Notes: generated from the sequence alone by a model not told the origin. A stretch of DNA of 64,000 nt from Candidatus Omnitrophota bacterium (GCA_043814315.1 JBDRKE010000005.1:28220-92219); one strand, 5' to 3'; shown: positions 27,216 to 63,168, numbered from the stretch's first letter. Numbers and translations: made by a program.

Positions 27216-27238
27216 TTGTATTAATTTCTTCAATCATT

Positions 27239-36735: not shown

Positions 36736-36739
36736 TAAC

Positions 36740-40199: not shown

Positions 40200-41290
40200 A
40201 AGCCGAGATTCAAAGGGTTAATACGCCTCTGGCCTGGGAGGAATTTCGCACCAAGCATCTGGGGAGAAAAGGCGTTATTGCACAGCTGACCAGTTCCATA
40301 TCCAGCCTGCCTCCGCAAGAACGCGCTGGTTTTGGTCAACAGGTCAATGCCTTAAAAACAAAAATCCTCTCTTTGCTTGAAGAGAAAGAAAGAGCCTTAG
40401 CGCAAGACAGCCAGCCGCCAGAGGTCGTTTCATGCGATATGGCGATGCCAGGCATGGCCCAGGAAATCGGGCATATCCATCCCGTTACGCAAGTCATGGA
40501 TGCCATCTGCACGATATTTGACCGCATGGGTTTTTCGGTGGTTGAAGGCCCTGAAATAGAGACGGAGTACAATAATTTTACGGGCTTGAATATCCCCCTG
40601 GAGCATCCTTCCCGCGACGCGTTTGATACCTTCTATTTAAAGTTAGCCGGTTCTCCTGTTAGCCAATTAGCCGGTTCAACCGGCAAACCGGCAAATGGTT
40701 CGACAGGCTCACCATCTCTCGAACCATCCCGAGCGAAGTCGAGGGACCGGCAAACCGGAAAACTATTGTTGCGCAGCCATACCTCTCCGGTCCAGATCCG
40801 GGTCATGAAATCGCGTAAGCCGCCTTTGGCTGTAGTGGTCCCCGGCCGGGTTTATCGGCCTGATGCCGTTGATGCCAGCCACTCTTTTATGTTCCATCAG
40901 ATCGAGGGATTTATGGTAGACACAGACATTAGGTTCTCGGATTTAAAAGGCGTATTAGAATTATTTGCCAAGGCGGTTTTCGGGAAAGATATAAAGATGC
41001 GTTTCAGGCCGCATTTTTTTCCTTTCACCGAGCCATCGGCAGAGGTTGACATCTCCTGTATCATCTGTCAGGGAAAAGGGTGTTCTGTATGCGGCAGGAA
41101 AGGGTGGCTTGAGATTTTGGGCTCAGGCATGATTCACCCCAACGTCTTCAAACAGGTGGGCTACGATCCCAAAAAGTATTCGGGTTTTGCCTTCGGCATG
41201 GGCGTTGAAAGAATCGCCATGCTTAAATACGGGATTAATGATATTCGTTTATTTTTCGAGAACGATTTAAGATTTTTGAAGCAGTTCTAG
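40169..41290 (+). CDS. pheS: Phenylalanyl-tRNA synthetase alpha subunit, with an in-frame repeat insertion
   Basis: Class II motifs present. About 40 aa (LKLAGSPVSQLAGSTGKPANGSTGSPSLEPSRAKSRDRQTGK) lie between DTFY and LLRSHTSPVQIR, where E. coli has none. Confidence 0.9.
   Translation: MDIDSIYSQIEAEIQRVNTPLAWEEFRTKHLGRKGVIAQLTSSISSLPPQERAGFGQQVNALKTKILSLLEEKERALAQDSQPPEVVSCDMAMPGMAQEIGHIHPVTQVMDAICTIFDRMGFSVVEGPEIETEYNNFTGLNIPLEHPSRDAFDTFYLKLAGSPVSQLAGSTGKPANGSTGSPSLEPSRAKSRDRQTGKLLLRSHTSPVQIRVMKSRKPPLAVVVPGRVYRPDAVDASHSFMFHQIEGFMVDTDIRFSDLKGVLELFAKAVFGKDIKMRFRPHFFPFTEPSAEVDISCIICQGKGCSVCGRKGWLEILGSGMIHPNVFKQVGYDPKKYSGFAFGMGVERIAMLKYGINDIRLFFENDLRFLKQF
40640..40765 (+). repeat. Family B repeat (GTTAGCCGGTT / AACCGGCAAACCGG units) inserted in-frame in pheS
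   Basis: gttagccggttctcctgttagccaattagccggttcaaccggcaaaccggcaaatgg...gaccggcaaaccggaaaac read directly. Confidence 0.7.
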
Positions 41291-41297
41291 AAGGAAT

Positions 41298-43409
41298 ATG
41301 AAAGTTACCTTTAGTTGGCTTAGGGATTTTGTAGATATCAGGCTATCGCCGGAAGCGCTGGCTGAAAAGCTCACCATGGCAGGCCTCGAGGTGACTTCTT
41401 TAGAGAGGAAGGAAGGGGATGTCGTTTTTGAGATTGAGGTAACCTCGAACCGTCCGGATTGGTTAAGCGTAGTCGGTATCGCCAGGGAAGTAGCGGCGAT
41501 TACTGGAAAAAAGTTAGCCAGTATGCCAGTTATCCAGTTAACCAGTTCTAACCGGCTAACCGGCAAACCGGCTAACCGGCTAACAATAAATATTCAGGAC
41601 AAAAAGGATTGTCCTTTATATACCGCAAAGATTATAAAAGACGTCAAGGTTGGGCCTTCACCGGAGTGGTTAAGGAAACGGTTAGAAGGGGTGGGTTGCC
41701 GCAGCATCAACAATATCGTGGATATCACGAATTATTGTTTATTCGCGTGGGGAGAGCCGCTTCACGCCTTTGATTTAGATAAAGTTGTTGGCCAGTTGGC
41801 CAGTACGCCAGTTAGTCAGTTAAATGTGATTATAAGAAGAGCGAAAAAGGGAGAAGAAATAGTAACCATTGACGGAATCAAGAGAATATTGAACGAAGAA
41901 ATCCTTGTTATTGCTTCGGAGGATAAAGAAAAATCCGGCAAACCGGAAAACCAGCAAATTGGCAAACCAATAGCGATAGCCGGCATCATGGGTGGTAAAG
42001 ATACACAGGTAACAGAGGGGACAAAAAATATTCTCCTGGAAGCTGCCGTATTCAATCCGATTATCGTCAGGCGCGGCAGGCAGGCTCTCGGCTTGCAGAC
42101 GGATTCTTCTTATCGTTTTGAGCGGGGCGTGGATTTTGAAACGGCCAAGAGTGCTTCTTGGCAGGCCGTTGAATTGATTCGTGTCCTAGCTAAAGGAAGG
42201 TGTCTATCAGCCAAGAACGCAGGCGTGACTAAAACGAGGAACAAGACGGTTGATTTAAGCGTTGCCGCCGCCCATAAGATTTTGAATGTTTCTATTACAG
42301 CTTTGCAGATAAAGAGCATTTTGTATCACCTGGGTTTTAGCGTAAAGGTAATATCAAAAGATAGGTTTTGCGTAACCGTTCCCAGCTTCAGGCCTGATGT
42401 ACATTTGGAAATAGACCTGATAGAAGAGATAGCCAGAATTTTTGGTTTTGAGCAGATCCCCAAGACCTTGCCCCGGGTTATGCCTGAGCCCCTTATAGGT
42501 AGACAAAGAGACCTCGTTTCTGTAACAAAGAATTTCTTAACAGGTTTAGGATTGCATGAAGTAGTCACCTACAGTCTTATTGACAAAGATCTGCTGAGCC
42601 ACCTTGGCTTGTCCCGGCAGCAGGAAGCTATCGGGATTCTTAATCCCTTAAGCAAAGAACAGGAGATCTTAAGGCCGACTCTTTTGGCAAGCCTCGCGCA
42701 ATGCGTTGCCCATAACCTCAACCAGAAACAGGAGTATGTTGCGATTTTTGAAGTCGCACAAGTTTTTTTGAAACATCGGGAGGAGCCCAAAGAGGAATTG
42801 AGGTTAGGTTTAGCCCTGTGCGGCAGTAAATCATTTATGCTGAATGGGGGATTTGTCCAAGACCCGGCGGATTTTCTGCATTTAAAAGGTATCCTCGAGG
42901 TGCTTTTTGGGAGGATAGGCGTGGCGGAGTATCATTTTTCTGGTTCCGCCGCTCCTTCTACTATGGATATCCGCGTGGGCAAAGAAAAAATCGGCCTGAT
43001 GACGATGTTGACAAAAAGAGCCTTAGATAAGTTTGATATAAAGAATAAAGAAGTATTTCTGCTGGAACTTTCTTTAGAAAAGCTTTTGTCACTAGCGTTA
43101 CCGCAGAAGAAATTTACGGCTCTCCCTAAATATCCCGGCATAGCCAGGGATATAAGTTTTTACCTTAAAGATACGGTTTCCATCAAGGAATTATTGGAAA
43201 CGCTTAAAGCCCAAGGCCAACCGTGGCTTGGCAGCATCAAAATAGCGGATTGCTATAAAGGTAAACAGATTCCAGTCGGCTATAAAGGGTTAACGATCTC
43301 CTGTTTATACCGCAGCGATGAAAGGACCCTGACAGAAACAGAGATAACCCCTTTGCATGCCCTCCTGGTCAGCACCCTGACAGAACGCTTTGGCGGCAAG
43401 ATTCGCTGA
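41298..43409 (+). CDS. pheT: Phenylalanyl-tRNA synthetase beta subunit with three in-frame repeat insertions
   Basis: MKVTFSWLRDFVDIRLSPEALAEKLTMAGLEV matches the PheT N-terminus. B3/B4, B5 and FDX-ACB domains follow; 703 aa. Confidence 0.9.
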   Translation: MKVTFSWLRDFVDIRLSPEALAEKLTMAGLEVTSLERKEGDVVFEIEVTSNRPDWLSVVGIAREVAAITGKKLASMPVIQLTSSNRLTGKPANRLTINIQDKKDCPLYTAKIIKDVKVGPSPEWLRKRLEGVGCRSINNIVDITNYCLFAWGEPLHAFDLDKVVGQLASTPVSQLNVIIRRAKKGEEIVTIDGIKRILNEEILVIASEDKEKSGKPENQQIGKPIAIAGIMGGKDTQVTEGTKNILLEAAVFNPIIVRRGRQALGLQTDSSYRFERGVDFETAKSASWQAVELIRVLAKGRCLSAKNAGVTKTRNKTVDLSVAAAHKILNVSITALQIKSILYHLGFSVKVISKDRFCVTVPSFRPDVHLEIDLIEEIARIFGFEQIPKTLPRVMPEPLIGRQRDLVSVTKNFLTGLGLHEVVTYSLIDKDLLSHLGLSRQQEAIGILNPLSKEQEILRPTLLASLAQCVAHNLNQKQEYVAIFEVAQVFLKHREEPKEELRLGLALCGSKSFMLNGGFVQDPADFLHLKGILEVLFGRIGVAEYHFSGSAAPSTMDIRVGKEKIGLMTMLTKRALDKFDIKNKEVFLLELSLEKLLSLALPQKKFTALPKYPGIARDISFYLKDTVSIKELLETLKAQGQPWLGSIKIADCYKGKQIPVGYKGLTISCLYRSDERTLTETEITPLHALLVSTLTERFGGKIR
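41515..41590 (+). repeat. Family B repeat insertion 1 in pheT
   Basis: gccagttatccagttaaccagttctaaccggctaaccggcaaaccggctaaccggctaac encodes MPVIQLTSSNRLTGKPANRLT. Left and right halves are near reverse complements. Confidence 0.7.
41789..41823 (+). repeat. Family B repeat insertion 2 in pheT
   Basis: ttggccagttggccagtacgccagttagtcagtta encodes GQLASTPVSQL. Confidence 0.55.
41931..41975 (+). repeat. Family B repeat insertion 3 in pheT
   Basis: aaatccggcaaaccggaaaaccagcaaattggcaaacc encodes KSGKPENQQIGKP. Confidence 0.5.
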
Positions 43410-43580
43410 CGCCCTGTTAATGTATTAATTTCAATAGTTCCACTAGCTATATGCACAGATGACCGCTGATGAAAAACCACTGATGATCGCAGATATTCTC
43501 TTTATGCGGACTTTATCTGTGATCATCTGTGCTTAATGAAACGAATCAGTTTAAATTGTACGATCCCCATTAAACAAATG

Positions 43581-43609
43581 TTGACTTACGGCGTAATATG
43601 TGTTATACT
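43581..43609 (+). promoter_or_regulatory. Consensus sigma70-type promoter (TTGACT-17 nt-TATACT)
   Basis: -35 TTGACT at 43581-43586, 17-nt spacer, -10 TATACT at 43604-43609. Confidence 0.6.
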
Positions 43610-43615
43610 ACTTTC

Positions 43616-43900
43616 GTAATGCGAGTTCTTTTAAAATCCCTGCGGTGCGCGTTGGAATTCTGATAATTGTTGAACCAACAATAATCTAATGGGAGCTTGG
43701 AACTTCCTTGGCGCTTTGGCGCTAAGGAGAGAGCACCCACCTGAAACGAAATCGGTTCAGACTGTCACTCCAACGGCACGCTGCGGGGATTTTTTTATTG
43801 AGCCCCGCGGCATTCTTGCATTCGTAAGAATGCAAGAAGCGGGGCGAAATAATCCCGAGCCTGCGCAGTCAATTTCGAAGAAATTGACAAGCGTTTAGGC
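43616..43900 (+). ncRNA. Candidate structured leader or small RNA upstream of rarA (riboswitch-like alternative pairing)
   Basis: Begins downstream of the consensus promoter. Contains hairpins ccttggcgc-tttg-gcgctaagg and GCGGGG-U7-...-CCCCGC (43784-43808), a long hairpin with GNRA loop cattcttgcattc-GTAA-gaatgcaagaa (43811-43838), and a second GCGGGG (43839-43844) that could pair alternatively with CCCCGC. No convincing CDS: the 69-aa track ORF is low-complexity. Confidence 0.35.
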
Positions 43901-43921
43901 GAGGGGTAATCCATTCTTAGC

Positions 43922-45259
43922 ATGCCCAATCAAGCTGCCGATTTATTCAATCTCGATCAACCCCTCGACTCTAAAACCTTCCCTTTAGCTGTGCGCATGC
44001 GGCCCTGTGCCTTAGAGGAGTTTGTAGGACAGGCCCATCTCCTGGGCAAGGGAAAACTTTTACGCCGCGCCATTGAAGCGGATCGTTTAAGCTCTGTCAT
44101 TTTATACGGCCCGCCGGGCACAGGGAAAACTTCCCTGGCCTGGTGCATTGCCCACGTCACTAAGGCCTACTACGAAGCCATCAATGCCACGACCTCTAAC
44201 GTCGAAGAATTGAGGCGGCTGATGGCCTCGGCAAAAATAAAATACGCCAACACAGGCCGTAAGACCACGCTTTTTATTGACGAGATCCACCGTTTTAATA
44301 AAGCTCAGCAGGATGTGCTTTTGCCTGATGTCGAAGACGGCAATCCCATTTTAATCGGCGCCACTGTCCACAACCCCTTTTTTTCTCTTGTCTCGCCCCT
44401 TTTGTCGCGCTCCCTGGTTTGCGAATTAAAGGCTTTAAAAGTAAACGAACTCATGTCGATCCTCCAGTCCGCCTTAAAGGATAAAACCCGGGGACTGGGG
44501 AATCAAAAGATAAAGATGGACAAAAAGGCGCTTGTCTTTTTAGCCAAGACGTGTGAAGGGGATGCCAGGCGCTGTCTGAGCGCCCTTGAGATAGGTTCTC
44601 TTACCACCTCCAAGTCTAAAGACGGTACCATCCATTTCACTTTAGAGGTTGCCAGCGAATCCATCCAGAAAAAAGCCCTGCTTTACGATAGGGATGAAGA
44701 CGGTCATTATGACACGGCCTCAGCCTTTATAAAAGCCATGCGTGGCTCTGATCCCGATGCGGCTTTGTACTGGATGGCCAAGATGCTTTATGCCGGAGAA
44801 GACCCGCGCTTCATTGCTCGTCGGATTTGCATCCTGGCTGCAGAGGACGTGGGTAACGCTGACCCCCTGGCCCTTGTTTTAGCCAACGCCTCCCTGCAGA
44901 TATCGGAGTTTGTGGGGATGCCTGAGGCAAGAATCCCTCTGGCCCAGGCAGTGATCTATGTCTCCTGTGCGCCTAAATCCAATGCCAGCTACCTGGCGAT
45001 AGAGAAGGCGGCCCAGGATATCGAACAAAAAAAGGTCCAGGAGGTGCCGGACCATCTCAAAGAGGCCTCTTATTCAGGAGCTGAAAAGCTTGGCCATGGC
45101 AAGGATTATAAATACGCGCACGACTATCCCGAACATTTTGTAGGCCAGAAATATACACGTAAGCGCGTGCGTTATTATGAGCCTACCGAGATGGGATTTG
45201 AAGCCAAGATCAAGCAGCGTCTTGAAAAGCTGCGCGCCAGCCAGAACCCCAAGAAATAA
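43922..45259 (+). CDS. rarA: Replication-associated recombination protein A (RarA/MgsA AAA+ ATPase)
   Basis: GPPGTGKTSLA Walker A, MgsA-specific C-terminal domains, 445 aa. Confidence 0.9.
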   Translation: MPNQAADLFNLDQPLDSKTFPLAVRMRPCALEEFVGQAHLLGKGKLLRRAIEADRLSSVILYGPPGTGKTSLAWCIAHVTKAYYEAINATTSNVEELRRLMASAKIKYANTGRKTTLFIDEIHRFNKAQQDVLLPDVEDGNPILIGATVHNPFFSLVSPLLSRSLVCELKALKVNELMSILQSALKDKTRGLGNQKIKMDKKALVFLAKTCEGDARRCLSALEIGSLTTSKSKDGTIHFTLEVASESIQKKALLYDRDEDGHYDTASAFIKAMRGSDPDAALYWMAKMLYAGEDPRFIARRICILAAEDVGNADPLALVLANASLQISEFVGMPEARIPLAQAVIYVSCAPKSNASYLAIEKAAQDIEQKKVQEVPDHLKEASYSGAEKLGHGKDYKYAHDYPEHFVGQKYTRKRVRYYEPTEMGFEAKIKQRLEKLRASQNPKK

Positions 45260-45461
45260 CCTGCCACACATATCATTTCAAGATCGGGTCTTGAAACAAT
45301 CCCCCAGACCGTTTCTAAATAACCTCTTGTAAAATAAGGCCTTTTGGCAGAAGTGTCCCGTACCACAAATCTCCCGTTAGATTTTAGTTTACTAACGGAG
45401 AAATTGATGGTTCGGCTTCGCTCACCATCAATTTCAAACGGCTTCTATCGGTAGAAATTGA

Positions 45462-45490
45462 TTGCATGCCTTCATGTTTCGCTGTAGAAT
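45462..45490 (+). promoter_or_regulatory. Sigma70-type promoter (TTGCAT-17 nt-TAGAAT) upstream of the EF-G fusion ORF
   Basis: -35 TTGCAT at 45462-45467, 17-nt spacer, -10 TAGAAT at 45485-45490. About 85 nt upstream of ATG 45574, with a GGTGCC-TCAC-GGCACC hairpin in the 5' UTR. Confidence 0.5.
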
Positions 45491-45573
45491 AATGAATCGT
45501 AATTAAAAAGGCGAACTATTTGCTGTGCAGCGGTGCCTCACGGCACCTGCTTGAGTAACCTATTGCAGTTAAG

Positions 45574-48500
45574 ATGCTCACGATACTTTATATAGCTTTG
45601 TTGGCAGCTATCAGCATGATAGCTTACGCTATCTACGGGATGGCAACGGCAGATTCTGCGGCCCGACCCAGGCCAAGAAGAGTGCCGGAAGGGAAAAATC
45701 AAAATTACGGGAAAGAAAAGACCGAAAAACTACAGATGCAAGTGTCAGCCCTGCAGGGAGAACTGGAAAAGGTAAAAACGGATTATGCCCATAGCCGGCA
45801 AGAAGTTGAGGTTTCCGGAAAATCCCAGGCGCAGTTAGAGGAGGAGCTCGTCCGTAGGCAGGATTGGGTGGTTAAAGCGGAAGAGGCATTGAATAAAACC
45901 AAGGAAGAGCATGGTGGCCTGCAGAAGAAATTTGCGGAAAAAGAAAAAGAGCTGGAAAAGGAGTTTGCCAAGAATGTCAATAGCAGCAAGGAAATTCGGG
46001 AATTAAACGAGAGGCTGGCCTTGCAAGAAGCAGCTATCAAGGACAGCTCGGATAAGATTGAGGCCCAGAAACATAAAATCGAGAAAGTTAATAAAGAACT
46101 TAAAAGCCAGCAGGAAACAATTGAGGAATTCAAAAAGAAAGAACAGATAAGCGAATGGATTCCTAAGCAGGAATTCAATAAGCTTAATGAAGAATACACG
46201 GAACTGGAAAAGGAATTAGAGACTAAGGAAGAGCGGTCAAGGATTTTGATGCAGGAGTTAGGCCATCTGAAGAGCCAGGTGGCCCAGAAGGAGAAAGCCG
46301 TCCCAGTCCTCCAGGAACAGAAAGAGGTGCCTGAAGAAGAGGAGCCCATCAAAGAAGAAGAACCTCCTAAAGAGCAGTTACCGCAAGAGCCCTCTAAGGA
46401 AGAGCCCCCTACTAAGCCCGAAGCACCCTTTGCGCCAGAAGAACCCTCCAAGCCCGAAGAGCCCCTAAAGCCCGAGGAGCCCCTAAAGCCCGAGGAGCCC
46501 CCTAAGTCCGAAGAAATGCAGCTCGGAGAAATGCAGAAGAAGGCTCCTGAGGTTAAGCCAGAGGAGATCCCTCGTGAAGCAGCCAAGAGAGCAAAGAAAA
46601 AAGAGCCAACGCCAGTTCCCCGCACAGAGTTAAAGATGGTCAGAAACATCGGGATTATGGCGCACATCGATGCCGGAAAGACGACTCTGACGGAGAGGAT
46701 TTTGTTTTATACGGGCAAGTCTTATAAAATCGGGGAGGTCCACGAAGGCGCTACACAGATGGATTGGATGAAGCAGGAGCGGGAACGAGGCATTACTATT
46801 ACATCGGCAGCAACGACATGCTTCTGGAAGGACCACAGGATCAATCTTATTGACACCCCTGGCCACGTTGATTTTACGGTTGAGGTGGAAAGGAGCCTTA
46901 GGGTTCTTGATGGCGCGGTGGCTGTTTTTTGCGCGGTAGGAGGGGTTGAGCCTCAATCGGAAACAGTGTGGCATCAATCCGATAAATACAACGTTCCCAA
47001 GATTGCCTTCGTGAACAAGATGGACCGGACAGGTGCTGACTTTCTTAGTGTGTTGAAGGGGATTGAAGAGATCCTGGGTGCCAATGTTGTTGCGCTAGTC
47101 ATTCCGATTGGCAGCGAAGACAGCTTTCGCGGGGTGGTGGATTTGATGGAGATGAAGTCCTATCTCTATCAGGAAGAGTCTCAGGGCAAGGATTTTCTTA
47201 TTGAGGATATCCCCGAAGAGCTTAAGGAAGATGCGCTCAAGTATCGCCATCTCTTAGTGGAGAAAATCTCAGCGCTTGACGAAACTTTAACCAAAAAGTA
47301 CCTGGAGGCTCCGGAGCAAATAACCCGGGAAGAACTCGCGCAGGTTTTGCGTAAGGGCACCATTTCTAATAAAATCGTGCCTCTTCTTTGCGGATCCGCT
47401 TTTAAAAACAAAGGGGTCCAGAAGCTCCTTGATGCGATAACGCTTTACCTGCCTTCTCCGTCGGATACCCCTGAGGTCAAGGGGCACAGCCTTCTTGATG
47501 CCGAAAAAACCGTCCTAAGAAAACCTGATTATCAAGAGCCATTAACGGGCCTTGCCTTTAAGATTCAGGCTGATCCGCATATGGGCAAGCTTGTGTATGT
47601 GAGGATTTATTCCGGCATCTTAGAGACGGGTTCCTATGTGCTTAATGCCACCAAGAACAAAAAGGAAAGAATCGGAAGGATTGTGCAGATGCATGCCAAC
47701 CAGCGGGAGAATGTCGAGTGCGCCTTTGCCGGCGATATCGTAGCCGTGGTAGGCCTTTCGCATACAACCACAGGAGATACCCTGTGCGATAAAGAAGAGC
47801 CCGTGGTCTTGGAGACAATAGAGTTTCCTGTGCCTGTGGTGTCGTTGAGCATCGCCCCAAAGAGCCGCTCGGATCAGGATAAGCTTGGAAAGGGTCTGTC
47901 CAAACTTATGGAGGAGGACCCCACCTTTTTAGTGCAAAGCGACGAAGAAACGAAAGAAACGGTCCTCACGGGCATGGGAGAGCTGCACCTTGAGATCATC
48001 GTGGATAGGCTTAAGGAGGAGTTTGACGTAGAGGCTGTGGTCGGTCAGCCAAAAGTCGCTTACAGGGAAACGATTCTGAAATCATCACACGCCGAAGGAA
48101 AATACATTAAGCAGTCCGGCGGCAGGGGTCAGTATGGCCATGTGGTCATGGAGATTTCGCCGGCTGCGGCTGGAGAGGGCTTCGAGTTTATTGACAGCAT
48201 TAAGGGAGGCGCTATCCCTAAATCCTTTATCCCTGCCGTAGAAAAGGGCGTGATAGAAGCTATGAAGAAAGGGGTCTATGCAGGATTTCCTGTCGTGGAT
48301 GTCAAGGTCAATCTTGTGGATGGATCTTTTCACGAGGTCGATTCGTCTGAACTGGCCTTTAGAATAGCGGCCATTCTGGGATTTAAACAGGCCTTTATGC
48401 AGGCAGAGCCGGCCCTGCTTGAACCCTATATGTCCCTTGAGGCCACCACGCCCGAAGAGTATGTGAATGCCGTCGTGGGATATTTAGGCTCCCGTCGGGG

Positions 48501-48726
48501 GAAAATCTTAAACATGGACAGCAAGGGAAAACAGAAAATAATCTCTGCGGAAGTTCCTCTCTCTGAAATGTTTGGTTATGCGACGGCCCTGCGCTCTTTA
48601 AGCAGCGGCCGTTGCAATGCCTCTATGGAGTTCCTCAGATACGCACATGTCCCCGGTGAAATCGCGCAAAAAGTCAAAGAGGAGCAGAAAAAGAAGGAAG
48701 GGGAGAAGGCGAAAGCGAAATCCTAA
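45574..48726 (+). CDS. Elongation factor G paralog with a 350-aa N-terminal extension (TM helix, coiled coil, Pro/Glu-rich linker)
   Basis: The C-terminal 700 aa is a complete EF-G: G domain [26 protein letters not shown]; G' insert; domain [14 protein letters not shown]; domain V. The N-terminus [24 protein letters not shown] is a TM helix, followed by about 230 aa of heptad-like E/K/L/Q-rich sequence and [25 protein letters not shown] single frame with no stop. An internal Met ([12 protein letters not shown], nt 46627) would give a canonical 700-aa EF-G on its own. Confidence 0.8.
46435..46515 (+). repeat. 18-nt tandem repeat (CCCGARGAGCCCCTAAAG, three copies) encoding a PEEPLK linker
   Basis: cccgaagagcccctaaag cccgaggagcccctaaag cccgaggagccccctaag read directly. 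Confidence 0.8.
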
Positions 48727-48776
48727 AATAAGCCAATAGAAAAGAGACAAAAGACAGGAAAGGAAAGGATAGGGCC

Positions 48777-49331: not shown

Positions 49332-49413
49332 AATTTCCCTTGAGCCTCCCCTTAAAATGTGTTAAAATTTTGTATTGAGCATTTAATCTTTTAAGCCATA
49401 AGGAATAACGGAA

Positions 49414-50070: not shown

Positions 50071-50079
50071 ACAAGCAGG

Positions 50080-52838: not shown

Positions 52839-53624
52839 ATGAAAATATTGTTTATCGGAGACATCGTGGGCAGTCCCGGCCGAGAGGCGATAGCCAGGAG
52901 CCTAGCGGAATTAAAGAAAGAATACAAATTGCAGTTTATCATCGCCAATGCCGAGAACGCCGCCGGCGGTTCCGGCATTACGCTTAAAGTTGCGGATGAA
53001 CTGTTTGGGCATGGAATCGATTGCTTGACCTCCGGAGACCATATCTGGAAAAAAAGGGATATTTTTGGGCTTATTAATCAAGAGGAGCGAATCTTGAGGC
53101 CTTTGAATTTTCCTTTCGGAGCACCCGGCAAAGGCGCAAGCTTATTTAAAACAAAGGAAGGGCTCTCTGTCGGGGTCATCAATGTTTGTGGTAGAGTGTT
53201 CATGGAGCCCTTGGAATGTCCTTTTAGGACAAGCCGGCAAGCGGTAGAAGAGTTATCTAAGCAGACGAGCGTCATTGTGGTGGATGTGCACGCAGAGGCC
53301 ACCTCAGAAAAGATAGCCCTGGGGTGGTATCTCGACGGAAAGGTCTCTGCGGTTTTGGGAACGCATACACACATACAAACGGCAGACGAGAGGATTTTGC
53401 CCCAAGGAACAGCCTATGTAACGGATGTGGGCATGACCGGGCCTTATGATTCTGTGATCGGCAGAAGAATCGAAGATGTGTTGGAAAGATTTGTCACGTC
53501 AATCCCCACCCGGCTCGAAGTCGCTAGCGATAATATCCAACTGCATGCGGTGGTTTTAGATATCGATGAAAACACAGGGAAGGCTAGATCCATAGAGAGG
53601 ATTCAGAAAAAGCTCCTAGGTTAA
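52839..53624 (+). CDS. ymdB: YmdB-family metallophosphoesterase (2',3'-cyclic-nucleotide 2'-phosphodiesterase, TIGR00282-like)
   Basis: MKILFIGDIVGSPGR...IANAENAAGG; conserved rny-ymdB synteny. Confidence 0.85.
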   Translation: MKILFIGDIVGSPGREAIARSLAELKKEYKLQFIIANAENAAGGSGITLKVADELFGHGIDCLTSGDHIWKKRDIFGLINQEERILRPLNFPFGAPGKGASLFKTKEGLSVGVINVCGRVFMEPLECPFRTSRQAVEELSKQTSVIVVDVHAEATSEKIALGWYLDGKVSAVLGTHTHIQTADERILPQGTAYVTDVGMTGPYDSVIGRRIEDVLERFVTSIPTRLEVASDNIQLHAVVLDIDENTGKARSIERIQKKLLG

Positions 53625-53625
53625 T

Positions 53626-53760
53626 GTCAAATGTCAAAATCCAAAATTCAAAATAAATCCCAAATCCAAAATCCAAAAAGAAGAATTCTCCATTTTGCAT
53701 GCTGCGTTTTGTGTTTATCTTGGATTTTGTGCTTTGTGCTTTGTCATCCAACTTTTGCCC
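53626..53760. repeat. Family A repeat element; its right arm overlaps the start of the next CDS
   Basis: tgtcaaatgtcaaaatccaaaattcaaaataaatcccaaatccaaaatccaaaa...ttggattttgtgctttgtgctttgtcat. Confidence 0.7.
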
Positions 53761-56884: not shown

Positions 56885-56885
56885 A

Positions 56886-57119
56886 ATGGCAGAGATAAAG
56901 TTTGAAGAGGCATTAAAAAAACTTGAGAAAATCGTAGAGGATCTAGAAAAAGGGGATTTGTCTCTGGATGAGGCCTTAAAAAAATACCAGGAGGGCATTG
57001 AATTGTCCCGGCTGTGTAATCAGCGATTGGAGAGCGCCAAGAAAAAAATAGATATCCTGGTAAAGAATAAAAAAGGGGATTTTGAATTAAAGCCCCTGGA
57101 TCAGGATAAAGAGAAATAA
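56886..57119 (+). CDS. xseB: Exodeoxyribonuclease VII small subunit
   Basis: 77 aa, helical, FEEALKKLEKIVEDLEKGDLSLDEAL; follows xseA. Confidence 0.9.
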   Translation: MAEIKFEEALKKLEKIVEDLEKGDLSLDEALKKYQEGIELSRLCNQRLESAKKKIDILVKNKKGDFELKPLDQDKEK

Positions 57120-59017
57120 TGTTATTAGAGAAAATCCATTCTCCGCAGGATTTAAAGAAACTTTCTCCTGATAAGCTGCCGAGGCTTGCGCAGGAAATAA
57201 GGCAGAGGATTATTGAGGTTGTTGCATCTTGCGGCGGGCACCTCGCTTCGAGCCTGGGTGCTGTCGAGCTCATTTTAGCCTTACACTATTGTCTGGATGC
57301 CAGGCGTGACAAAATCATCTTTGATGTTGGGCATCAGGCCTATGCCCACAAGATACTGACCGGCAGAAACAAGGATTTTCATACGCTGCGTCAATATCAG
57401 GGCCTCAGCGGTTTTCCTTCCAAAGAGGAATCCGTTTGCGATATATTTACGACAGGCCACAGTTCCAGCGCCGTATCGCTGGCACTAGGTTTAGCCTGCG
57501 CAAGGGATTTCTTACCCCAAGAGCCATCTTTTAAAGTGGTAGCCGTTATCGGTGACGGTTCATTAAGCGGGGGGCTGTGTTTTGAGGGGCTGAATAATGC
57601 CGGCCACCTCAAAAAAGATATTTTAGTTATTTTAAATACCAATGAATTAAGCATTGCGCCGAATACGGGCGCCATAAGCACTTACCTTAATAAGATTATA
57701 TCGTTGCCTATATACAATCGCTTCAAAGGCTCTTTAGAAAGTTTTGTAAAATCGCGCATGCCCAAGGGGAGCCGTATCATCAAAATAGCCAATAAGTTCG
57801 AAGAGGGGCTTAAAGGGTTATTCATTCCCGGCATGCTTTTTGAAGAGTTGGGATTTCGGTATTTTGGCCCTTTCGACGGACACGATGTAAGCCTTCTGAT
57901 TAAGACATTGAAAAACATAAACAACCTAAGGGGCCCGCTCTTGCTGCATGTGGTTACCAAAAAAGGGAAAGGTTATGTTCCTGCAGAGCTCGATCCCGTC
58001 CGTTTTCACGGCACAGGGCCTTTTGATATCCTGTCAGGACAAAGGCAAGGCACAGCGTTTAAAACCTATACGGAGGTTTTCAGCGAAAAGCTATTAGATT
58101 TAGCCGCTCGCGATAAAAGAATCGTCGCTATCACAGCTGCCATGCCGGAAGGCACAGGTTTGGATAAATTTCGCGATCGTTTCCCGCAGAGGTTTTTTGA
58201 CGTAGGCATTGCAGAAACTCATGCCGTCTGCTTTTCCGCAGGCCTTGCTAAAGCAGGACTCAAACCGGTCGTGGCCATATATTCCACTTTTTTGCAAAGG
58301 GCTTATGATCAGATTATTGAAGATATCGCGTTGCAGAATTTACCCGTCGTCTTTATGCTTGACCGCTCAGGCATCGTGGGAGAGGATGGAGTAACCCACC
58401 AGGGCATTTTTGACATCGGATACTTAAGAAATATTCCTCATTTAGTGGTGATGGCACCCAAGGATGGGGGGGAGTTAGAAGCGATGCTTGAATTCGCTAT
58501 TGGCTTAGATAGGCCTTGCGTTATCAGGTACCCCAGGGATAAAATCCCAAATCCAATGGTTCGACTCCGTTCTCCATTGGCACCGAGCGAATCCGAGGTG
58601 CCCAAATCCCAAATTCCAAATGAGAAAATAGAACTAGGAAAGGCCGAGGTATTAATGGAAGGAAAAGACTTTATGCTTTTAACGCTGGGAAGCATGGTTT
58701 GCCCGGGTTTTGAGGCCATGGAATTGTTGCGCAAGGAGGGCCTATCCGGAACTTTGATAAATGCCCGCTTTGTAAAACCCTTGGACACTGAGCTATTTAA
58801 ACAGATAGCTTCAAAGGCCAAATTTATTTTTTCGGTTGAAGAGGGAATCGTAGAAGGAGGTTTTGGCAGCGCGGTAGCCGAGGCTCTGGATGGCGTTGTG
58901 ACCAAGATAGGGTTGCCTTGCGCCTTTATCCCGCACGGAAAAAGAGCTTTAATGTTGGATAAATACAGATTAACGGCCCAAGGGATTGCTGATAAAATCA
59001 AATCCGTATTGCGTTAA
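57119..59017 (+). CDS. dxs: 1-deoxy-D-xylulose-5-phosphate synthase with an in-frame repeat insertion near the C-terminal domain
   Basis: TPP-binding GDG motif and transketolase-like domains; 632 aa. Between RYPRD and EKIELGKAEV lies an extra KIPNPMVRLRSPLAPSESEVPKSQIPN. Confidence 0.9.
   Translation: MLLEKIHSPQDLKKLSPDKLPRLAQEIRQRIIEVVASCGGHLASSLGAVELILALHYCLDARRDKIIFDVGHQAYAHKILTGRNKDFHTLRQYQGLSGFPSKEESVCDIFTTGHSSSAVSLALGLACARDFLPQEPSFKVVAVIGDGSLSGGLCFEGLNNAGHLKKDILVILNTNELSIAPNTGAISTYLNKIISLPIYNRFKGSLESFVKSRMPKGSRIIKIANKFEEGLKGLFIPGMLFEELGFRYFGPFDGHDVSLLIKTLKNINNLRGPLLLHVVTKKGKGYVPAELDPVRFHGTGPFDILSGQRQGTAFKTYTEVFSEKLLDLAARDKRIVAITAAMPEGTGLDKFRDRFPQRFFDVGIAETHAVCFSAGLAKAGLKPVVAIYSTFLQRAYDQIIEDIALQNLPVVFMLDRSGIVGEDGVTHQGIFDIGYLRNIPHLVVMAPKDGGELEAMLEFAIGLDRPCVIRYPRDKIPNPMVRLRSPLAPSESEVPKSQIPNEKIELGKAEVLMEGKDFMLLTLGSMVCPGFEAMELLRKEGLSGTLINARFVKPLDTELFKQIASKAKFIFSVEEGIVEGGFGSAVAEALDGVVTKIGLPCAFIPHGKRALMLDKYRLTAQGIADKIKSVLR
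58540..58635 (+). repeat. Family A-related repeat inserted in-frame in dxs
   Basis: aaaatcccaaatcc + palindrome ccaatggttcgactccgttctccattgg + cccaaatcccaaattccaaat. Confidence 0.6.
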
Positions 59018-59029
59018 GCTTTTTATAGA

Positions 59030-59233
59030 ATGGCCAGGATTAAGATCGATCAAGACAAATGCAAAGGATGCCTCTTGTGTATAAAGTTTTGTCCCAAAGG
59101 CTCCCTGAGCCTAGACAATAAATTAAACCGATGGGGGGTAAAGCCGGTTAAATCTCAGAAGAGCAAGGCTTGCATAGGCTGTAGTATCTGTGCGATTGTT
59201 TGTCCGGATTGCTGTATCGAAGTGTATAAATAA
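59030..59233 (+). CDS. porD: 2x[4Fe-4S] ferredoxin, delta subunit of a 2-oxoacid:ferredoxin oxidoreductase
   Basis: 67 aa with CKGCLLCIKFCP and CIGCSICAIVCP motifs, immediately upstream of the alpha subunit. Confidence 0.8.
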   Translation: MARIKIDQDKCKGCLLCIKFCPKGSLSLDNKLNRWGVKPVKSQKSKACIGCSICAIVCPDCCIEVYK

Positions 59234-59325
59234 AATTCAAATGACAAAATCCAAAATTCAAAACAAAACCTTTTTAGTTTTGGATTTTGTGCTTTGTGCT
59301 TTGTCATTTGAATTTATGCCTTTTG
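59234..59325. repeat. Family A repeat element
   Basis: aaattcaaatgacaaaatccaaaattcaaaacaaaacc...ttttggattttgtgctttgtgctttgtcatttgaattt, near-perfect long hairpin. Confidence 0.75.
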
Positions 59326-59329
59326 GATT

Positions 59330-60412
59330 ATGTCTCAAAAAAAAGTCTTGATGACAGGTAATGAGGCCATGGCCGAAGGCGCCATACAGGCAGGATGTTC
59401 GTTTTATGCGGGTTACCCGATTACTCCGCAGAATGAGATACCTGCTTATATGGCACGCCGCATGCCTGAAGCAGGAGGCGTATTTATTCAGGCGGAATCA
59501 GAACTGGCAGCCGTCAATATGGTGTTTGGAGCAGCAGCCGCAGGGGCTCGCGCTTTGACCAGTTCCTCCAGCCCCGGGATCAGCCTTAAGCAGGAGGGAA
59601 TTTCTTATTTGGCTGGGGCCCAATTGCCGGCTGTGATTATTAATGTGATGCGCGGCGGCCCGGGATTGGGCAACATCTGGCCAGCGCAATCAGATTATTT
59701 TCAGGCCACGCGTAGCGGCGGCCACGGAGATTACCATTCTATAGTGCTTGCGCCTTCCTCTGTTCAGGAGTCTTATGATCTGGCGGGCCGTGCGTTTGAC
59801 CTTGCCGAGAGGTATCGTACCCCGGTTATCATTCTGGGGGACGGAACACTCGGGCAGATGATGGAACCCCTCGTTATCAAATCCAAAATTCCTTCCTGCC
59901 CCGAGGGCAGGAAGGATCCAAAATCCAAAATAAAGAAACCCTGGGCGCTGACGGGCTGTCAAAGAAGAAAGCCGAATGTCGTAAAATCTTTTTATCTGAA
60001 GGAAGGAGATTTAGAAAAGTTTAACCTCACTTTACAAAAGAAATACAATTCCATTAAACAAAAAGTTCAGTGTTATGAGGGGTCATTTTTAGATAAGGCC
60101 CGGGTGGTTGTTGTGGCTTATGGAACGATGAGCCGGATTGCCAAAAGCGCGGTCAGTCAACTGCGCAAAAACGGCAAAAGAATCGGCTTGATACGGCCCG
60201 TCACCCTTTGGCCGTTTCCTCAACAGGCCTTCCAGAGATTCAGCCGACCGGAGAGAAAAGTTAAGTTTCTGGTTGTGGAGATGTCTTACGGCCAGATGTT
60301 AGAAGATGTGAAATTGGCGCTGGATGGCCGATGCCCCGTTGGCTTTCTGGGCCGTTCCGGCGGAGGAGTACCGACGGAGGAAGAGATTATATCCAAGATA
60401 AGTGAACTATAG
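59330..60412 (+). CDS. porA: 2-oxoacid:ferredoxin oxidoreductase alpha subunit (POR/KOR/VOR family) with an in-frame repeat insertion
   Basis: MSQKKVLMTGNEAMAEGAIQAGCSFYAGYPITPQNEI matches the N-terminus of the family. An extra IKSKIPSCPEGRKDPKSKIKKP segment sits near residue 185. Confidence 0.85.
   Translation: MSQKKVLMTGNEAMAEGAIQAGCSFYAGYPITPQNEIPAYMARRMPEAGGVFIQAESELAAVNMVFGAAAAGARALTSSSSPGISLKQEGISYLAGAQLPAVIINVMRGGPGLGNIWPAQSDYFQATRSGGHGDYHSIVLAPSSVQESYDLAGRAFDLAERYRTPVIILGDGTLGQMMEPLVIKSKIPSCPEGRKDPKSKIKKPWALTGCQRRKPNVVKSFYLKEGDLEKFNLTLQKKYNSIKQKVQCYEGSFLDKARVVVVAYGTMSRIAKSAVSQLRKNGKRIGLIRPVTLWPFPQQAFQRFSRPERKVKFLVVEMSYGQMLEDVKLALDGRCPVGFLGRSGGGVPTEEEIISKISEL
59878..59936 (+). repeat. 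Family A-related repeat inserted in-frame in porA
   Basis: aaatccaaaattcc + palindrome ttcctgccccgagggcaggaagg + atccaaaatccaaaat. Confidence 0.6.
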
Positions 60413-60540
60413 TGTTAAATTCCAATTTCCAAATCCCAATATACAAACAAATCACAATACACAAATGTCTTTGTGATTTGTGTATTCGGTATTGTGGCTT
60501 GTTTGTAATTTGTGTATTGCGATTTGTGATTTAAAATATC
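60413..60540. repeat. Variant repeat element (CACAAATCACAATACACAAA hairpin)
   Basis: ccaatttccaaatcccaat...caaatcacaatacacaaatg-tctt-tgtgatttgtgtattcggtattgtg...tgtgtattgcgatttgtgatt. Confidence 0.6.
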
Positions 60541-60543
60541 ATT

Positions 60544-61272
60544 ATGGATAAATTATTTAGTCACCCTAAATCTTTACGCGATGTTTCTACGCACTACTGC
60601 CCGGGTTGCGGTCACGGTATCGCGCACAGGCTCATTGCCGAAGTCGTGGATGAATTAGGGATTAGGCAACGGGTTATTGGCGTGGCTCCGGTGGGTTGCG
60701 CCGTGGTTGCCTACGATTACTGGGATTTTGATTGCAGTGAGGCTGCGCACGGCAGGGCCTTGGCTGTGGCAACCGGAATAAAAAGGGTGAGGCCGCAAAA
60801 TATTGTTTTTACATATCAGGGGGATGGAGACCTGGCAGCCATTGGAACAAGCGAAACGCTGCATGCGGCGAATCGCGGAGAAAACCTCACCGTGATATTT
60901 ATCAATAATGCCGTTTACGGGATGACGGGCGGCCAGATGGCGCCCACGACTCTTTTGGGGCAGAAAACCGCCACCACCCCCCGAGGAAGGAAAGCCCGCT
61001 CAGAAGGCTATCCCTTAAAGGTCTCTGAAATGTTGAGCTTGTTATCTGGAGTCCAATATATAGAAAGGACAGCGCTCTATTCTCCGCAAGAGATTATAAA
61101 AACCAAAAAAGCCATCAAGCTGGCATTTCAAAACCAGATGGGCCATATAGGTTTTTCGTTAGTTGAAATACTTTCTCCTTGTCCAACCTACCTGGGGCTT
61201 TCTCCCGGCCAGGCCTTGGATTGGATAAGGGATGTGATGCAAAAAGAGTTTCCCTTGGGGAGAATCAAATGA
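60544..61272 (+). CDS. porB: 2-oxoacid:ferredoxin oxidoreductase beta subunit (TPP-binding)
   Basis: CPGCGHG N-terminal Cys motif and GDG TPP motif; 242 aa. Confidence 0.85.
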
Positions 61273-61796
61273 CAGAGCGTATTATTATAGCCGGCTCAGG
61301 CGGGCAGGGCGTGATGTTATTAGGCAAGATGCTGGCAGAGGCAGGGATGCGGGAAGACAGGTTTGTTACGTGGCTGCCTTCTTACGGAGCCGAGGTGCGC
61401 GGCGGAACGAGCCACTGCATGGTGATTATCTCCGATAAAGAAATCGGTTCTCCCTATATTGAGAAAGCAGATACCTTGATTGTCATGAACCAGCCGTCCC
61501 TGAAGAAATTTAAAGAAAGATTGGCAGCTAAAGGCTTGCTCATCATCAATAGCTCTTTGGTCCCCTCTTATGCCGGGAAAAATGCAGAGATATTGCAGCG
61601 CCCCTTTACGGACATAGCCATAAAAATCGGAAATATCAAGGTGGCTAATACGGTGGCGCTGGGCTGTTATCTTGCCAAGAAAAAAACAGTAAGCCTCAAA
61701 ACGGCCAGACGCATCATTGCGGACAGGGGCTCAATGGTCAATGCGGACTTGGCCCGTATCAACCAAGAGGCCTTGCAGGCAGGAGTAAAAGTTTAA
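61269..61796 (+). CDS. porG: 2-oxoacid:ferredoxin oxidoreductase gamma subunit
   Basis: [27 protein letters not shown]. The ATGA overlap with the porB stop makes 61269 the likely start; the track ORF 61179 is an upstream extension. Confidence 0.85.
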
Positions 61797-61806
61797 GGAG
61801 GCAGTT

Positions 61807-63168
61807 ATGGTTAGAGTTCGCTTCGCCCCTTCTCCGACGGGGAATCTCCATATAGGGGGCGCACGTACCGCATTGTTTAATTGGCTTTACGCCAGAGCCA
61901 GGCAGGGAAAATTTATCTTAAGGATAGAGGACACGGATCAGGCCCGTTCACAAAAAGAGTATCTGGACGAAATATTGTTTAGCCTCAAGTGGCTGGGGCT
62001 TGTCTGGGATGAGCTTTATCACCAGAGCCAGAGGCTTGAGATTTATAGAGACTATGCCGATAAATTGCTAAAACAAGGTAAGGCATATTCTGTTAGCCCG
62101 TTAGCCAATTCGCCAGTTCGCCAGTTCGAACCGGAAAACCGGAAAACCGGAAAACCGGCAAACCAAGAAGCCATTATCTTCAAGGTGACCCCTCAAAAGA
62201 TAAAGATCCATGATTTGGTCCGCGGCCCGATTGAATTCGATGCCGAGGATCTCAAGAATCAGGTCTTGATAAAATCCGACGGTACGCCTACCTACAATTT
62301 TGCCTGCGTCGTGGATGACGCTTTGATGGATATAACCCACGTGATCAGAGGCGATGATCACATCTCCAATACGCCCAAGCAGGTTCTTCTTTACCATGCC
62401 TTGGGATTGAGGATTCCTGAGTTTGCCCACCTGCCTTTGATTTTGGGCAAGGAGGGGGGCCGGCTTTCTAAAAGAACGGGCGCCACCGCCATCAGCGAAT
62501 ATCGCAGCCTGGGATATTTGCCGCAGGCCCTCATTAACTACCTGTTGCTTTTGAGCTGGTCACCGGGTGAAAACCGGGAGGTCATCGATTTAACAGAAGC
62601 GATTTCCTTATTTGATATCAAAGACGTGAATAAGACGGCAGCCACCTTTGACAGGGATAAGCTTAACTGGATGAATAATCAGTATCTAAAGTCCGCAGAC
62701 ACGCAAGGCTTAACCGATAGGCTTATCCCTATGCTGATCGAAAAGAAATTACTCCCGGAAGATAATTTTGATAGAAATGCCATCGTTTCTTTAGTGAAAT
62801 TATTTCAAGCCAGGCTCACCACGCTTAATGATTTTGTTAATTGGGCTGACTTCTTCTTCGTCAAAGATATTCAAATAGATCCCGCGGCCCAAGAGAAGCA
62901 TTTAAGCAAAGATCTTTCGGAGCCCTTCCTTCTTTTTATTCAAAGGCTGGAGGCCCTGGAGACATTTGATATCGCCTCCATCGAGAAAAGCTTTCGCGAT
63001 TTAGTCAAGGAACTGGGCACAGAATCCAAATCGCTTATCCATCCTATCAGGGTGGCTTTAACAGGCAAGACCGTTGGGCCCGGGTTGTTTGAGGTGATAT
63101 ATTATTTGGGTAAGGAGCGCACCAAAGAGAGACTCATGAAATGGGCGAAAGAAAGGAGTCAGAAATGA
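61807..63168 (+). CDS. gltX: Glutamyl-tRNA synthetase with an in-frame repeat insertion
   Basis: Class I HIGH (PSPTGNLHIGGART) and KMSKS-like (RLSKR) motifs; 453 aa. An extra PLANSPVRQFEPENRKTGKPANQEA segment follows KAYSVS. Confidence 0.9.
   Translation: MVRVRFAPSPTGNLHIGGARTALFNWLYARARQGKFILRIEDTDQARSQKEYLDEILFSLKWLGLVWDELYHQSQRLEIYRDYADKLLKQGKAYSVSPLANSPVRQFEPENRKTGKPANQEAIIFKVTPQKIKIHDLVRGPIEFDAEDLKNQVLIKSDGTPTYNFACVVDDALMDITHVIRGDDHISNTPKQVLLYHALGLRIPEFAHLPLILGKEGGRLSKRTGATAISEYRSLGYLPQALINYLLLLSWSPGENREVIDLTEAISLFDIKDVNKTAATFDRDKLNWMNNQYLKSADTQGLTDRLIPMLIEKKLLPEDNFDRNAIVSLVKLFQARLTTLNDFVNWADFFFVKDIQIDPAAQEKHLSKDLSEPFLLFIQRLEALETFDIASIEKSFRDLVKELGTESKSLIHPIRVALTGKTVGPGLFEVIYYLGKERTKERLMKWAKERSQK
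62098..62168 (+). repeat. Family B repeat inserted in-frame in gltX
   Basis: gttagccaattcgccagttcgccagttcgaaccggaaaaccggaaaaccggaaaaccggcaaacc; left CCAGTTCG units and right AACCGGAA units are near reverse complements. Confidence 0.7.

Follow-up and report, generated by a model that had tools for sequence, protein, structure and literature searches.

The stretch analysed here, referred to as the window, comprises 64,000 nucleotides of a Candidatus Omnitrophota bacterium (GCA_043814315.1 JBDRKE010000005.1:28220-92219). It covers the replication-origin region and carries about 50 genes, including dnaA, dnaN, gyrB and gyrA (both with inteins), yidC, parAB, thrS, infC, trkAH, pheS, pheT, 6S RNA, rarA, an EF-G homologue, RNase Y, dxs, pyruvate:ferredoxin oxidoreductase (POR) genes and gltX. 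The PheT and the glutamyl-tRNA synthetase (GluRS) of the window match NCBI proteins of an Omnitrophota metagenome-assembled genome (MAG) at 100%. Three of its aminoacyl-tRNA synthetase (aaRS) genes, pheS, pheT and gltX, contain short palindromic blocks of tandem octamers, which a first-pass annotation, made from the sequence alone, had taken for in-frame insertions resembling the palindromic elements of Rickettsia. The genes and the parts of the blocks are as follows.

40160-41290, + strand: pheS, phenylalanine--tRNA ligase alpha (PDB phmmer E = 1e-107 to the alpha subunit of phenylalanyl-tRNA synthetase, PheRS)
40642-40677, + strand: pheS left arm, GTTAGCCG GTTCTCCT GTTAGCCA ATTAGCCG and a GTTC turn, delimited by sequence and fold
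40678-40694, + strand: pheS right arm, proximal part, AACCGGCA AACCGGCA A
40695-40746, + strand: pheS nested mini-element, ATGGTTCGAC...CCGAGCGAAGTCGAGGGA, in frame within the right arm
40747-40763, + strand: pheS right arm, distal part, CCGGCAAACCGGAAAAC, which in the predicted fold pairs with the left arm's start
41298-43409, + strand: pheT, phenylalanine--tRNA ligase beta, short form without the N-terminal tRNA-binding domain (PDB alignment; 100% Omnitrophota MAG protein)
41513-41584, + strand: pheT site 1, a contiguous hairpin, GTTAGCCA GTATGCCA GTTATCCA GTTAACCA GTTCT and then AACCGGCT AACCGGCA AACCGGCT AACCGGCT AAC
41787-41822, + strand: left arm of the pheT cassette (site 2), GTTGGCCA GTTGGCCA GTACGCCA GTTAGTCA GTTA, left-type units only
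41823-41932, + strand: segment enclosed by the pheT cassette, 110 nt or about 30-36 amino acids, predicted to form a region of four beta strands in the B3/4 domain, homologous in all PheT
41933-41971, + strand: right arm of the pheT cassette (site 3), ATCCGGCA AACCGGAA AACCAGCA AATTGGCA AACCAAT, right-type units only
61807-63168, + strand: gltX, glutamate--tRNA ligase (PDB alignment)
62092-62167, + strand: gltX element, GTTAGCCC GTTAGCCA ATTCGCCA GTTCGCCA GTTCG, then three copies of AACCGGAA, AACCGGCA and AACCAAG

All five blocks reported in the first-pass annotation, one in pheS, three in pheT and one in gltX, lie at or within a few bases of where it had placed them, and its description of them as in-frame, hairpin-forming repeats is borne out by stop-free gene frames and by the folds. 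The contiguous blocks (pheS, pheT site 1 and gltX) share one plan, in which four left units of the form GTTnGCCn are followed by a GTTC-like turn and about four right units of the form AACCGGnn. Across the window, the dimer AACCGGNNAACCGG gave seven matches against 0.00 expected and the dimer CCAGTTNNCCAGTT, with at most one mismatch, gave eight against 0.21 expected; every match of either dimer fell inside the blocks. Tandem Repeats Finder (TRF) placed the period-8 tandem arrays of the window solely in the pheS, pheT and gltX blocks, and thrS of the window carries no such array. The four octamer structures of the window share a unit family and are not near-identical. The elements are 35-85 nt long, that of pheS being longer solely through its nested second element, and encode 9-40 amino acids of low complexity without a domain (for example, LTGKPANR and SPVSQLAGSTGKPANG in the predicted translation). 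The gene frame is stop-free in 5/5 blocks and is the sole stop-free sense frame in 4/5, with 1-5 stops in the other sense frames, and unit variants such as AGTATG replacing AGTTAG abolish would-be in-frame stops. The open gene frame and the stop-removing variants suggest that the blocks are translated and are selected to stay open. At the gathering threshold, Rfam returned only four tRNAs and 6S RNA in the window and no match at the repeat sites. An assembly artefact was ruled out, the same architecture being present in independent NCBI, JGI, ENA and Logan assemblies.

The blocks were compared with solved structures, distant orthologs and relatives, the DNA loci of relatives being given L-numbers and their proteins P-numbers. 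Against solved structures, pheS shows a clean gap of about 40 amino acids between DTFY and LLRTHTS, and its alignment to PheRS alpha splits in two around query residues 161-200, which are the insert; pheT sites 2 and 3 show gaps of 8 and 13 amino acids. The pheS linker has a baseline of 5-7 amino acids and reaches at least 12 amino acids in 16/26 Omnitrophota-like genes and 7/34 outgroups. In the PheT set, which comprised 120 Omnitrophota sequences and 54 outgroups, the baseline at sites 2 and 3 is 9 and 9 residues (54/54 outgroups and most Omnitrophota) and the inserted state 18 and 21-22. Omnitrophota GluRS has a baseline of 430-435 amino acids with the sequence ...AYIEKS-AEGKEAIIFKV, a scattered subset having 10-25 extra residues there, and the gltX insert of the window amounts to 18 amino acids relative to the closest GluRS, P0122 (82-84% identical). 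Distant orthologs have, at pheT site 1 and at the gltX site, stretches of varying or greater length and of unrelated sequence, and pheT site 1 is a linker of variable length in all PheT. The claim that orthologs have no residues at these positions thus holds for pheS and for pheT sites 2 and 3 in the comparison with close Omnitrophota relatives as well as with solved structures, and for gltX in that with close relatives; it does not hold for pheT site 1 and gltX in distant orthologs, which do carry residues at the same positions. Residues in orthologs, which the first-pass annotation had named as evidence against insertion, thus speak in part against it for pheT site 1 and gltX among distant orthologs, but not among close relatives, compared with which every block is an insertion. 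An AlphaFold2 model of PheT (38-sequence alignment), with a mean predicted local distance difference test score of 63 and scores below 50 over residues 75-176 and 211-291, was not used for loop placement. A few distant loci from phyla other than Omnitrophota (L176, L177, L186, L144 and L164) likewise have longer linkers at the pheS site or at pheT site 1, with hairpins of moderate significance, and the permissive sites, perhaps also the phenomenon, are therefore not exclusive to Omnitrophota.

The three pheT sites, listed separately in the first-pass annotation, are not all independent insertions: sites 2 and 3 form the left and right arms of a single inverted repeat, between which lie 110 nt of conserved coding sequence. 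In relatives, the duplex between them, formed across the intervening coding sequence, reaches -36 to -61 kcal/mol, with z scores against shuffles of -3.4 to -8.6 in L121, L122, L123, L125, L126 and L128 and of -9.6 on the antisense strand in L209. In 40 uninserted controls, the mean z score was 0.09 and the minimum -1.44. The arm pair of the window's own pheT has decayed (duplex z about -2), and in L207 the arms at the two sites belong to different unit families and are unpaired.

Nor do the blocks belong to one sequence family that has colonised genes: in other Omnitrophota the same four sites (pheS, pheT site 1, pheT sites 2 and 3, and gltX) carry hairpins built from unrelated 7-8-nt units. 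The units found there include GTTCTCGG; GTTCTCGA with CTCACGAA; GTTCCCGC with AACGCGCC; GTGAACCG with CACACCGG; the period-7 pair GTCACCA with GACCGGC; GGCACAG; AGCTCCA with GCAAGCT; and AGTTAGG with AACTCCC. The peptides encoded at the same site have nothing in common between lineages. Pairing is conserved, while sequence and peptide are not. Within one arm the units are nearly identical, and in most of the inserted relatives compared at the DNA level the pheT left arm consists of four units in the same GTT register, which is also that of the window. Extra copies come three units at a time, so that the frame is kept (P0066, for example, has 8 additional amino acids). The idea that a trans-acting factor recognises a single unit sequence in each genome was considered and rejected, because a single genome, represented by L121/L210, has four different units at its four sites.

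The presence or absence of the inserts, a comparison that the first-pass annotation had proposed, proved polymorphic and patchy among relatives, the pheT pair being missing from relatives that are 85-92% identical. The 120 Omnitrophota PheT divide into 33 with the two arms, 84 with none and 3 partial cases, so that the left arm occurs with the right arm in 33 of the 36 arm-bearing proteins; both arms are absent from 54/54 outgroups. On the tree, pheT alleles with and without the insert are intermingled, and over the rest of the gene the closest relative of 22/33 inserted genes is uninserted, at identities of up to 92%. The enclosed segment itself differs by class, reading ...GEEI.TIDGIKRIL[DN]E[EN]IL.IAS in inserted and ...EKI.TIDG.[EQ]R.LNPDILVIAD in uninserted genes, and class-discriminating residues are concentrated at positions 163-225. 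For close pairs, defined as 80-95% identical elsewhere in the gene, the identity of the segment was 0.86 when both members were uninserted (n = 134) and 0.62, with a maximum of 0.73, when one was inserted and the other not (n = 48). Segment identity correlated with rest-of-gene identity among uninserted pairs (r = 0.65) and not among inserted pairs (r = 0.08). P0010 and P0099 share 93% of the cassette within genes of 57% identity; P0010 and P0027 are practically the same over residues 55-160, including the site 1 hairpin, and differ across the cassette only; and P0118, a hybrid, has a single arm and a segment that is half of one kind and half of the other. The pheT arms and the enclosed essential segment act as one cassette of about 185-200 nt that is decoupled from the gene tree.

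The same mosaicism is seen at the DNA level. L125 and L126 are 95-100% identical across about 5 kb save for discrete islands, namely the pheS hairpin, a second pheS array, an inserted toxin-antitoxin-like open reading frame (ORF), pheT site 1, the whole pheT cassette, which is equally long in both and differs by about one third, and a hairpin patch in intergenic DNA. Within the cassette the two share 68% of nucleotides and 47% of third positions, compared with 94% and 89% elsewhere. The window and L123 are the mirror image of this pair, with 90% of nucleotides and 80% of third positions shared in the cassette and 70% and 52% in the rest of the gene; the 32-nt left arm of the pheS element is also nearly identical in L123. 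What changes as a unit is thus the whole stretch from one outer end of the inverted repeat to the other, which in the split pheT element takes in an essential coding segment.

Several observations concern the surroundings of these islands. The ORF inserted between pheS and pheT in L125 (3253-3973) encodes 181 amino acids with weak DUF6036/AbiEii matches and is absent in L126. L126 has an orphan in-frame array, (GAGAACA)x4.7, at 1078-1110 in the zinc-ribbon loop of PheS (CKG-EQRTENREQRR-HCSVC), without a complementary partner, and this array is missing in L125, a relative with about 94% identity in pheT. The L125/L126 pair has one of its hypervariable hairpin islands 3' of pheT (L125 6337-6406). 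In the window, the 500-nt gap 3' of pheT contains 6S RNA (43634-43793; Rfam, 67 bits).

A second, smaller element was found inside the arrays. This mini-element of about 50 nt, ATGGTTCGAC...CCGAGCGAAnnCGAGG, occurs at three sites, each within an existing repeat array, and is read in different frames at its sites, as listed below.

Window 40695-40746: in the pheS hairpin; absent from the otherwise similar element of L123
Window, about 58555-58602: in frame in the dxs heptamer array; absent from L210
L126 1720-1735: in pheT site 1; absent from L125

The host array in dxs (gene 57119-59017) is an in-frame heptamer array, (AAATCCC)n, at 58545-58625 on the + strand, which the mini-element copy interrupts. 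The corresponding 16 amino acids MVRLRSPLAPSESEVP are missing in the dxs of L210, whose array (6729-6760) remains, and the motif CCGAGCGAATCCGAGG is common to the dxs copy and the nested element of pheS. The presence of the mini-element in three arrays and its lack in close relatives are direct evidence for insertion into existing arrays. Its GGTTCGA resembles a tRNA T-arm; the pheS copy folds differently.

Beyond the four sites, TRF detected 108 period-7/8 arrays in 265 kb of Omnitrophota-like sequence. In addition to pheS, pheT and gltX, these are located in dxs (window and L210), at the 5' ends of GH39 and POR genes, at many intergenic sites and, in at least nine lineages, in the part encoding the N-terminal signal-peptide region of a small, secreted, functionally uncharacterised protein whose gene lies between trkH and pheS. 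The proposed concentration in essential translation genes therefore applies to the octamer family of the window and does not extend to the period-7/8 arrays as a whole. Two further kinds of array deserve mention. Signal-peptide-like N-termini are encoded by arrays in which an A-rich arm gives a positive region rich in K, N and Q and a T-rich arm gives a hydrophobic stretch (MSKSKIQNKSQIQNPKRR-ILHFACCVLCLSWILCFVLC); such arrays lie at window 53631-53750 (start of the GH39 gene), L149 1431-1518, L123 2478-2504 and L138 1465-1532, and the small protein encoded between trkH and pheS has N-termini of this type in several lineages. AT-rich palindromic heptamer arrays, (CAAAATC)n and then (GATTTTG/TTTGTGC)n, stand directly after stop codons in intergenic DNA of the window (17924-17993, 35225-35308, 36601-36736, 53624-53747, 59233-59334 and 60415-60534) and appear to be a separate family, either terminator-like or resembling repetitive extragenic palindromic (REP) sequences. 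In a scan of a genome collection with the pattern AACCGGNNAACCGGNNAACCGG, the matches listed included unrelated high-GC taxa (Streptomyces and a Thermoanaerobaculia MAG) and no Omnitrophota; among these matches, arrays of AACCGG-containing octamers lay at several loci of the one Thermoanaerobaculia MAG and at others of an Olavius symbiont and of Desulfosudis.

The hairpins are asymmetric between strands. At pheT site 1 the fold is -27.7 kcal/mol on the sense and -49.7 kcal/mol on the antisense strand (z = -4.4 and -9.5), at gltX it is -20.2 and -35.9 kcal/mol (antisense z = -4.0), and in 20/21 hairpins the antisense fold is the more stable. The antisense folds contain 92 G.U pairs and the sense folds 20, with equal Watson-Crick counts. 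A general antisense bias of these coding regions was ruled out, given that ordinary coding windows of the same genes show none (mean difference +1.4 kcal/mol, favouring sense). The sense strand of the inserts has an A+C content of 58%, compared with 48%. We infer that T and G are selected against on the sense strand because both arms have to encode stop-free, hydrophilic loops in all three phases, and that pairs therefore become A.C mismatches on that strand.

Taking these results together, the account that we favour, and consider somewhat probable, is that the blocks are tolerated or selfish, translated hairpin elements acting at the DNA level, which are exchanged as modules bounded by inverted repeats, probably by recombination. 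They would represent a class of small hairpin elements widespread in Omnitrophota, each arm consisting of about four tandem 7-8-nt units and the second arm being a near reverse complement of the first, which occupies a small number of fixed and structurally permissive positions in conserved genes as well as intergenic DNA. The ribosome would read the elements through as disordered loops, and they would be tolerated or selfish DNA rather than peptides with a function or mRNA regulators; the host gene would be selected only to keep them in frame, stop-free and hydrophilic, pushing the sense strand to A and C. Modules may be gained, lost or replaced whole, from outer arm end to outer arm end; the most likely route is an exchange of DNA between lineages followed by recombination through the flanking codons, which are very conserved. 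In pheT, the arms are split around 110 nt of essential coding sequence, and this segment, being flanked by the arms, would travel with them. The data show position, frame, pairing, turnover of sequence, mosaicism and decoupling from the gene tree; that recombination is the route and that a function is lacking is what we infer.

Several points weigh against this account. The comparison of filled and empty sites indicates that the inserts substitute for 4-5 resident codons instead of being purely added, and reveals neither target-site duplications nor flanking direct repeats. The proteins of the 64-kb window include no transposase or recombinase, and no enzyme or mechanism of mobility was identified among them. 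All four octamer structures lie in aaRS genes, which make up about 10% of the window, and the antisense bias could reflect selection for structure on that strand. The homogeneity of the arms and their GTT register, shared by most of the inserted relatives compared, suggest in-place concerted evolution and not repeated arrival. In addition, the pheT tree is a neighbour-joining tree built on protein distances, and the DNA sample of inserted pheT loci is small (10 loci).

It is possible, although in our judgement unlikely, that the blocks arose by mutation in place without any mobility, replication slippage building the 7-8-nt arrays and intramolecular template switching or fold-back synthesis at quasi-palindromes copying one arm from the other, so that hairpins would be created and homogenised at loops tolerant of added residues. 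Inverted repeats produced by fold-back or template switching are documented in other systems (PMC11724301, PMC10766183), and homogeneous arms with a constant register and copy number in most inserted relatives, expansion in steps of three units, orphan single arms such as the (GAGAACA)x4.7 array of L126 pheS, the unpaired arms of different families in L207, and the lack of target-site duplications and of a transposase in the window would all be expected from it. What it leaves unexplained is the class-specific residues and the gene-tree decoupling of the segment of about 30 amino acids in pheT, near-identical cassettes in genes that are 57% identical, a 50-nt mini-element at three unrelated sites, and the gap-free replacement of a cassette by one of equal length between genomes that are about 94% identical. 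A nucleic-acid structure with a function, whether in mRNA, antisense RNA or one DNA strand, could instead tune the expression, stability or co-translational folding of the synthetases, compensatory changes keeping the stems. The survival of pairing through complete sequence turnover at four fixed sites argues for such a role, as do the antisense bias beyond background (20/21 hairpins; G.U pairs 92 versus 20) and the confinement of every octamer structure of the window to aaRS genes. However, the inserts come and go between relatives that are 85-92% identical and are missing in many Omnitrophota (neither pheT arm in 84/120), the arms do not pair in L207 and have decayed in the pheT cassette of the window, and arrays of the same kind occur in dxs, signal peptides and intergenic DNA. 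Moreover, the mRNA strand has the weaker fold, the opposite of what an mRNA element predicts, the A+C enrichment of the sense strand provides a coding-constraint account of the strand bias, and Rfam has no match at the repeat sites. We regard a functional structure as rather improbable.

An adaptation at the protein level, in which the loops serve partner binding, localisation or regulation of the synthetase and the palindromic DNA is incidental, seems to us very improbable. The inserts do sit at turns between conserved strands, and their positions and approximate lengths are conserved (+9 and +12-13 amino acids in pheT, about 19-23 amino acids in pheS), but no peptide is conserved between lineages, the frame of the mini-element differs by site, close relatives lack the inserts, and it is base pairing, not residues, that is conserved. 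That the blocks are members or direct homologues of the Rickettsia palindromic element (RPE) family is hardly credible, even though the two share a lifestyle as palindromic repeats in frame in housekeeping genes. RPEs are repeats of about 150 bp that lie in unrelated housekeeping genes, often at the same site in related species, have a sequence and peptide specific to each family, and are translated as extra surface segments compatible with function (PMC10969869, a review of MITEs). The elements described here consist of 35-85 nt of tandem 7-8-nt units, are lineage-specific and hypervariable at fixed sites, share no sequence or peptide even among close Omnitrophota, and in one case have arms split around essential coding sequence. 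The likeness to RPEs that had been suggested accordingly extends to in-frame insertion with the protein intact, seen here in the open frames of pheS, pheT, gltX and dxs, and the elements are RPE-like in lifestyle but, by length, architecture and sequence conservation, not members.

Tolerated, translated hairpin modules of the kind we favour resemble several other known systems in part. MITEs, or miniature inverted-repeat transposable elements, are small, non-autonomous, often intergenic and occasionally intragenic, and their terminal inverted repeats correspond to the arms here; however, our elements have tandem-array arms, replace 4-5 codons, and lack target-site duplications and, within the window, a near-identical multicopy family and a cognate transposase. 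Inteins and homing introns offer an analogy of lifestyle only, in that they occupy conserved points of essential genes, are patchy and tree-incongruent, and co-convert adjacent host sequence; the pheT cassette sits between the PLHAFDLD and IAGIMGG motifs, is patchy and at odds with the tree of its host gene, and has an enclosed segment that is inherited along with the arms. Unlike inteins, which are present in gyrA and gyrB of the same window, the inserts have no splicing (Hint) domain or endonuclease and stay in the mature protein. The attC sites of integrons carry R boxes at their outer ends, R''(RYYYAAC)...R'(GTTRRRY). They and the ends of IS200/IS605 elements are similar to our elements in that structure prevails over sequence, the central length is variable, one strand folds better, and GTT/AAC triplets lie in the arms. 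The order of these triplets, GTT in the left arm and AAC in the right, is nevertheless the reverse of attC, the units of some lineages lack GTT, and the elements are inside essential ORFs; among the window proteins there is neither an integrase (tyrosine recombinase) nor a Y1 transposase. Short tandemly repeated repetitive (STRR) sequences are tandem heptamer repeats of cyanobacteria. These and the repetitive hairpin elements of organelles have tandem heptanucleotide arrays and hairpin repeats genome-wide in common with the present case, in different taxa and with different sequences. To our knowledge, they have not been described as turning over in frame at fixed sites or as exchanging cassettes in essential genes. 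The organellar repetitive hairpin-forming elements spread through the genome, mostly between genes and sometimes within them (PMC2800124). REP sequences and bacterial interspersed mosaic elements (BIMEs) are extragenic, with a GTAG or CGTC head and a REP-associated tyrosine transposase (RAYT) (PMC3733652); the present elements are intragenic and have no conserved head tetranucleotide, and no RAYT is encoded in the window. The closer likeness to REPs is that of the AT-rich heptamer arrays behind stop codons, which are REP-like or terminator-like. By analogy with integron attC recombination or intein homing, the hairpins might be substrates of structure-directed, strand-specific recombination or homing that overwrites everything between the outer ends of the inverted repeat, a proposal that we consider doubtful.

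Other features of the window were noted. A giant ORF of more than 2818 amino acids (3-8456, - strand) runs off the start of the window and has no Pfam domain. The genes gyrA and gyrB (14092-17844 and 18011-21763, - strand) each contain an intein (Intein_splicing, with LAGLIDADG also in gyrA), and a free-standing LAGLIDADG ORF at 27239-27688 is preceded by a near-perfect 25-nt palindrome (27166-27217). The EF-G homologue (45574-48726) has an N-terminal extension of about 350 amino acids with a period-18 tandem repeat (46414-46515); most relatives are also about 1000 amino acids long, and that of L124 has the normal 690.

We found no account of these elements in Omnitrophota in the literature. 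If the favoured account is correct, this large, nearly uncultured phylum would hold a previously undescribed gene-resident repeat that is defined by its hairpin form and not by its sequence, and translated repeats would be rewritten at fixed sites of essential genes much faster than the genes diverge. The pheT cassette, with inverted-repeat arms that would move together with the essential coding segment between them, would then add to the known ways in which selfish DNA persists in essential genes, with no need of the splicing machinery of inteins or introns. The islands inflate apparent divergence and break alignments, and they can mislead phylogenies and ortholog length statistics when pheS, pheT and gltX serve as markers; conversely, they may be useful as sensitive strain markers. 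The signal-peptide-like products of A-rich and T-rich arrays hint at raw material for new protein features. Were structure-directed homing to operate, a translated selfish cassette, even one with its own copy of an essential pheT segment, could spread between Omnitrophota lineages, hidden in the most conserved parts of essential genes.

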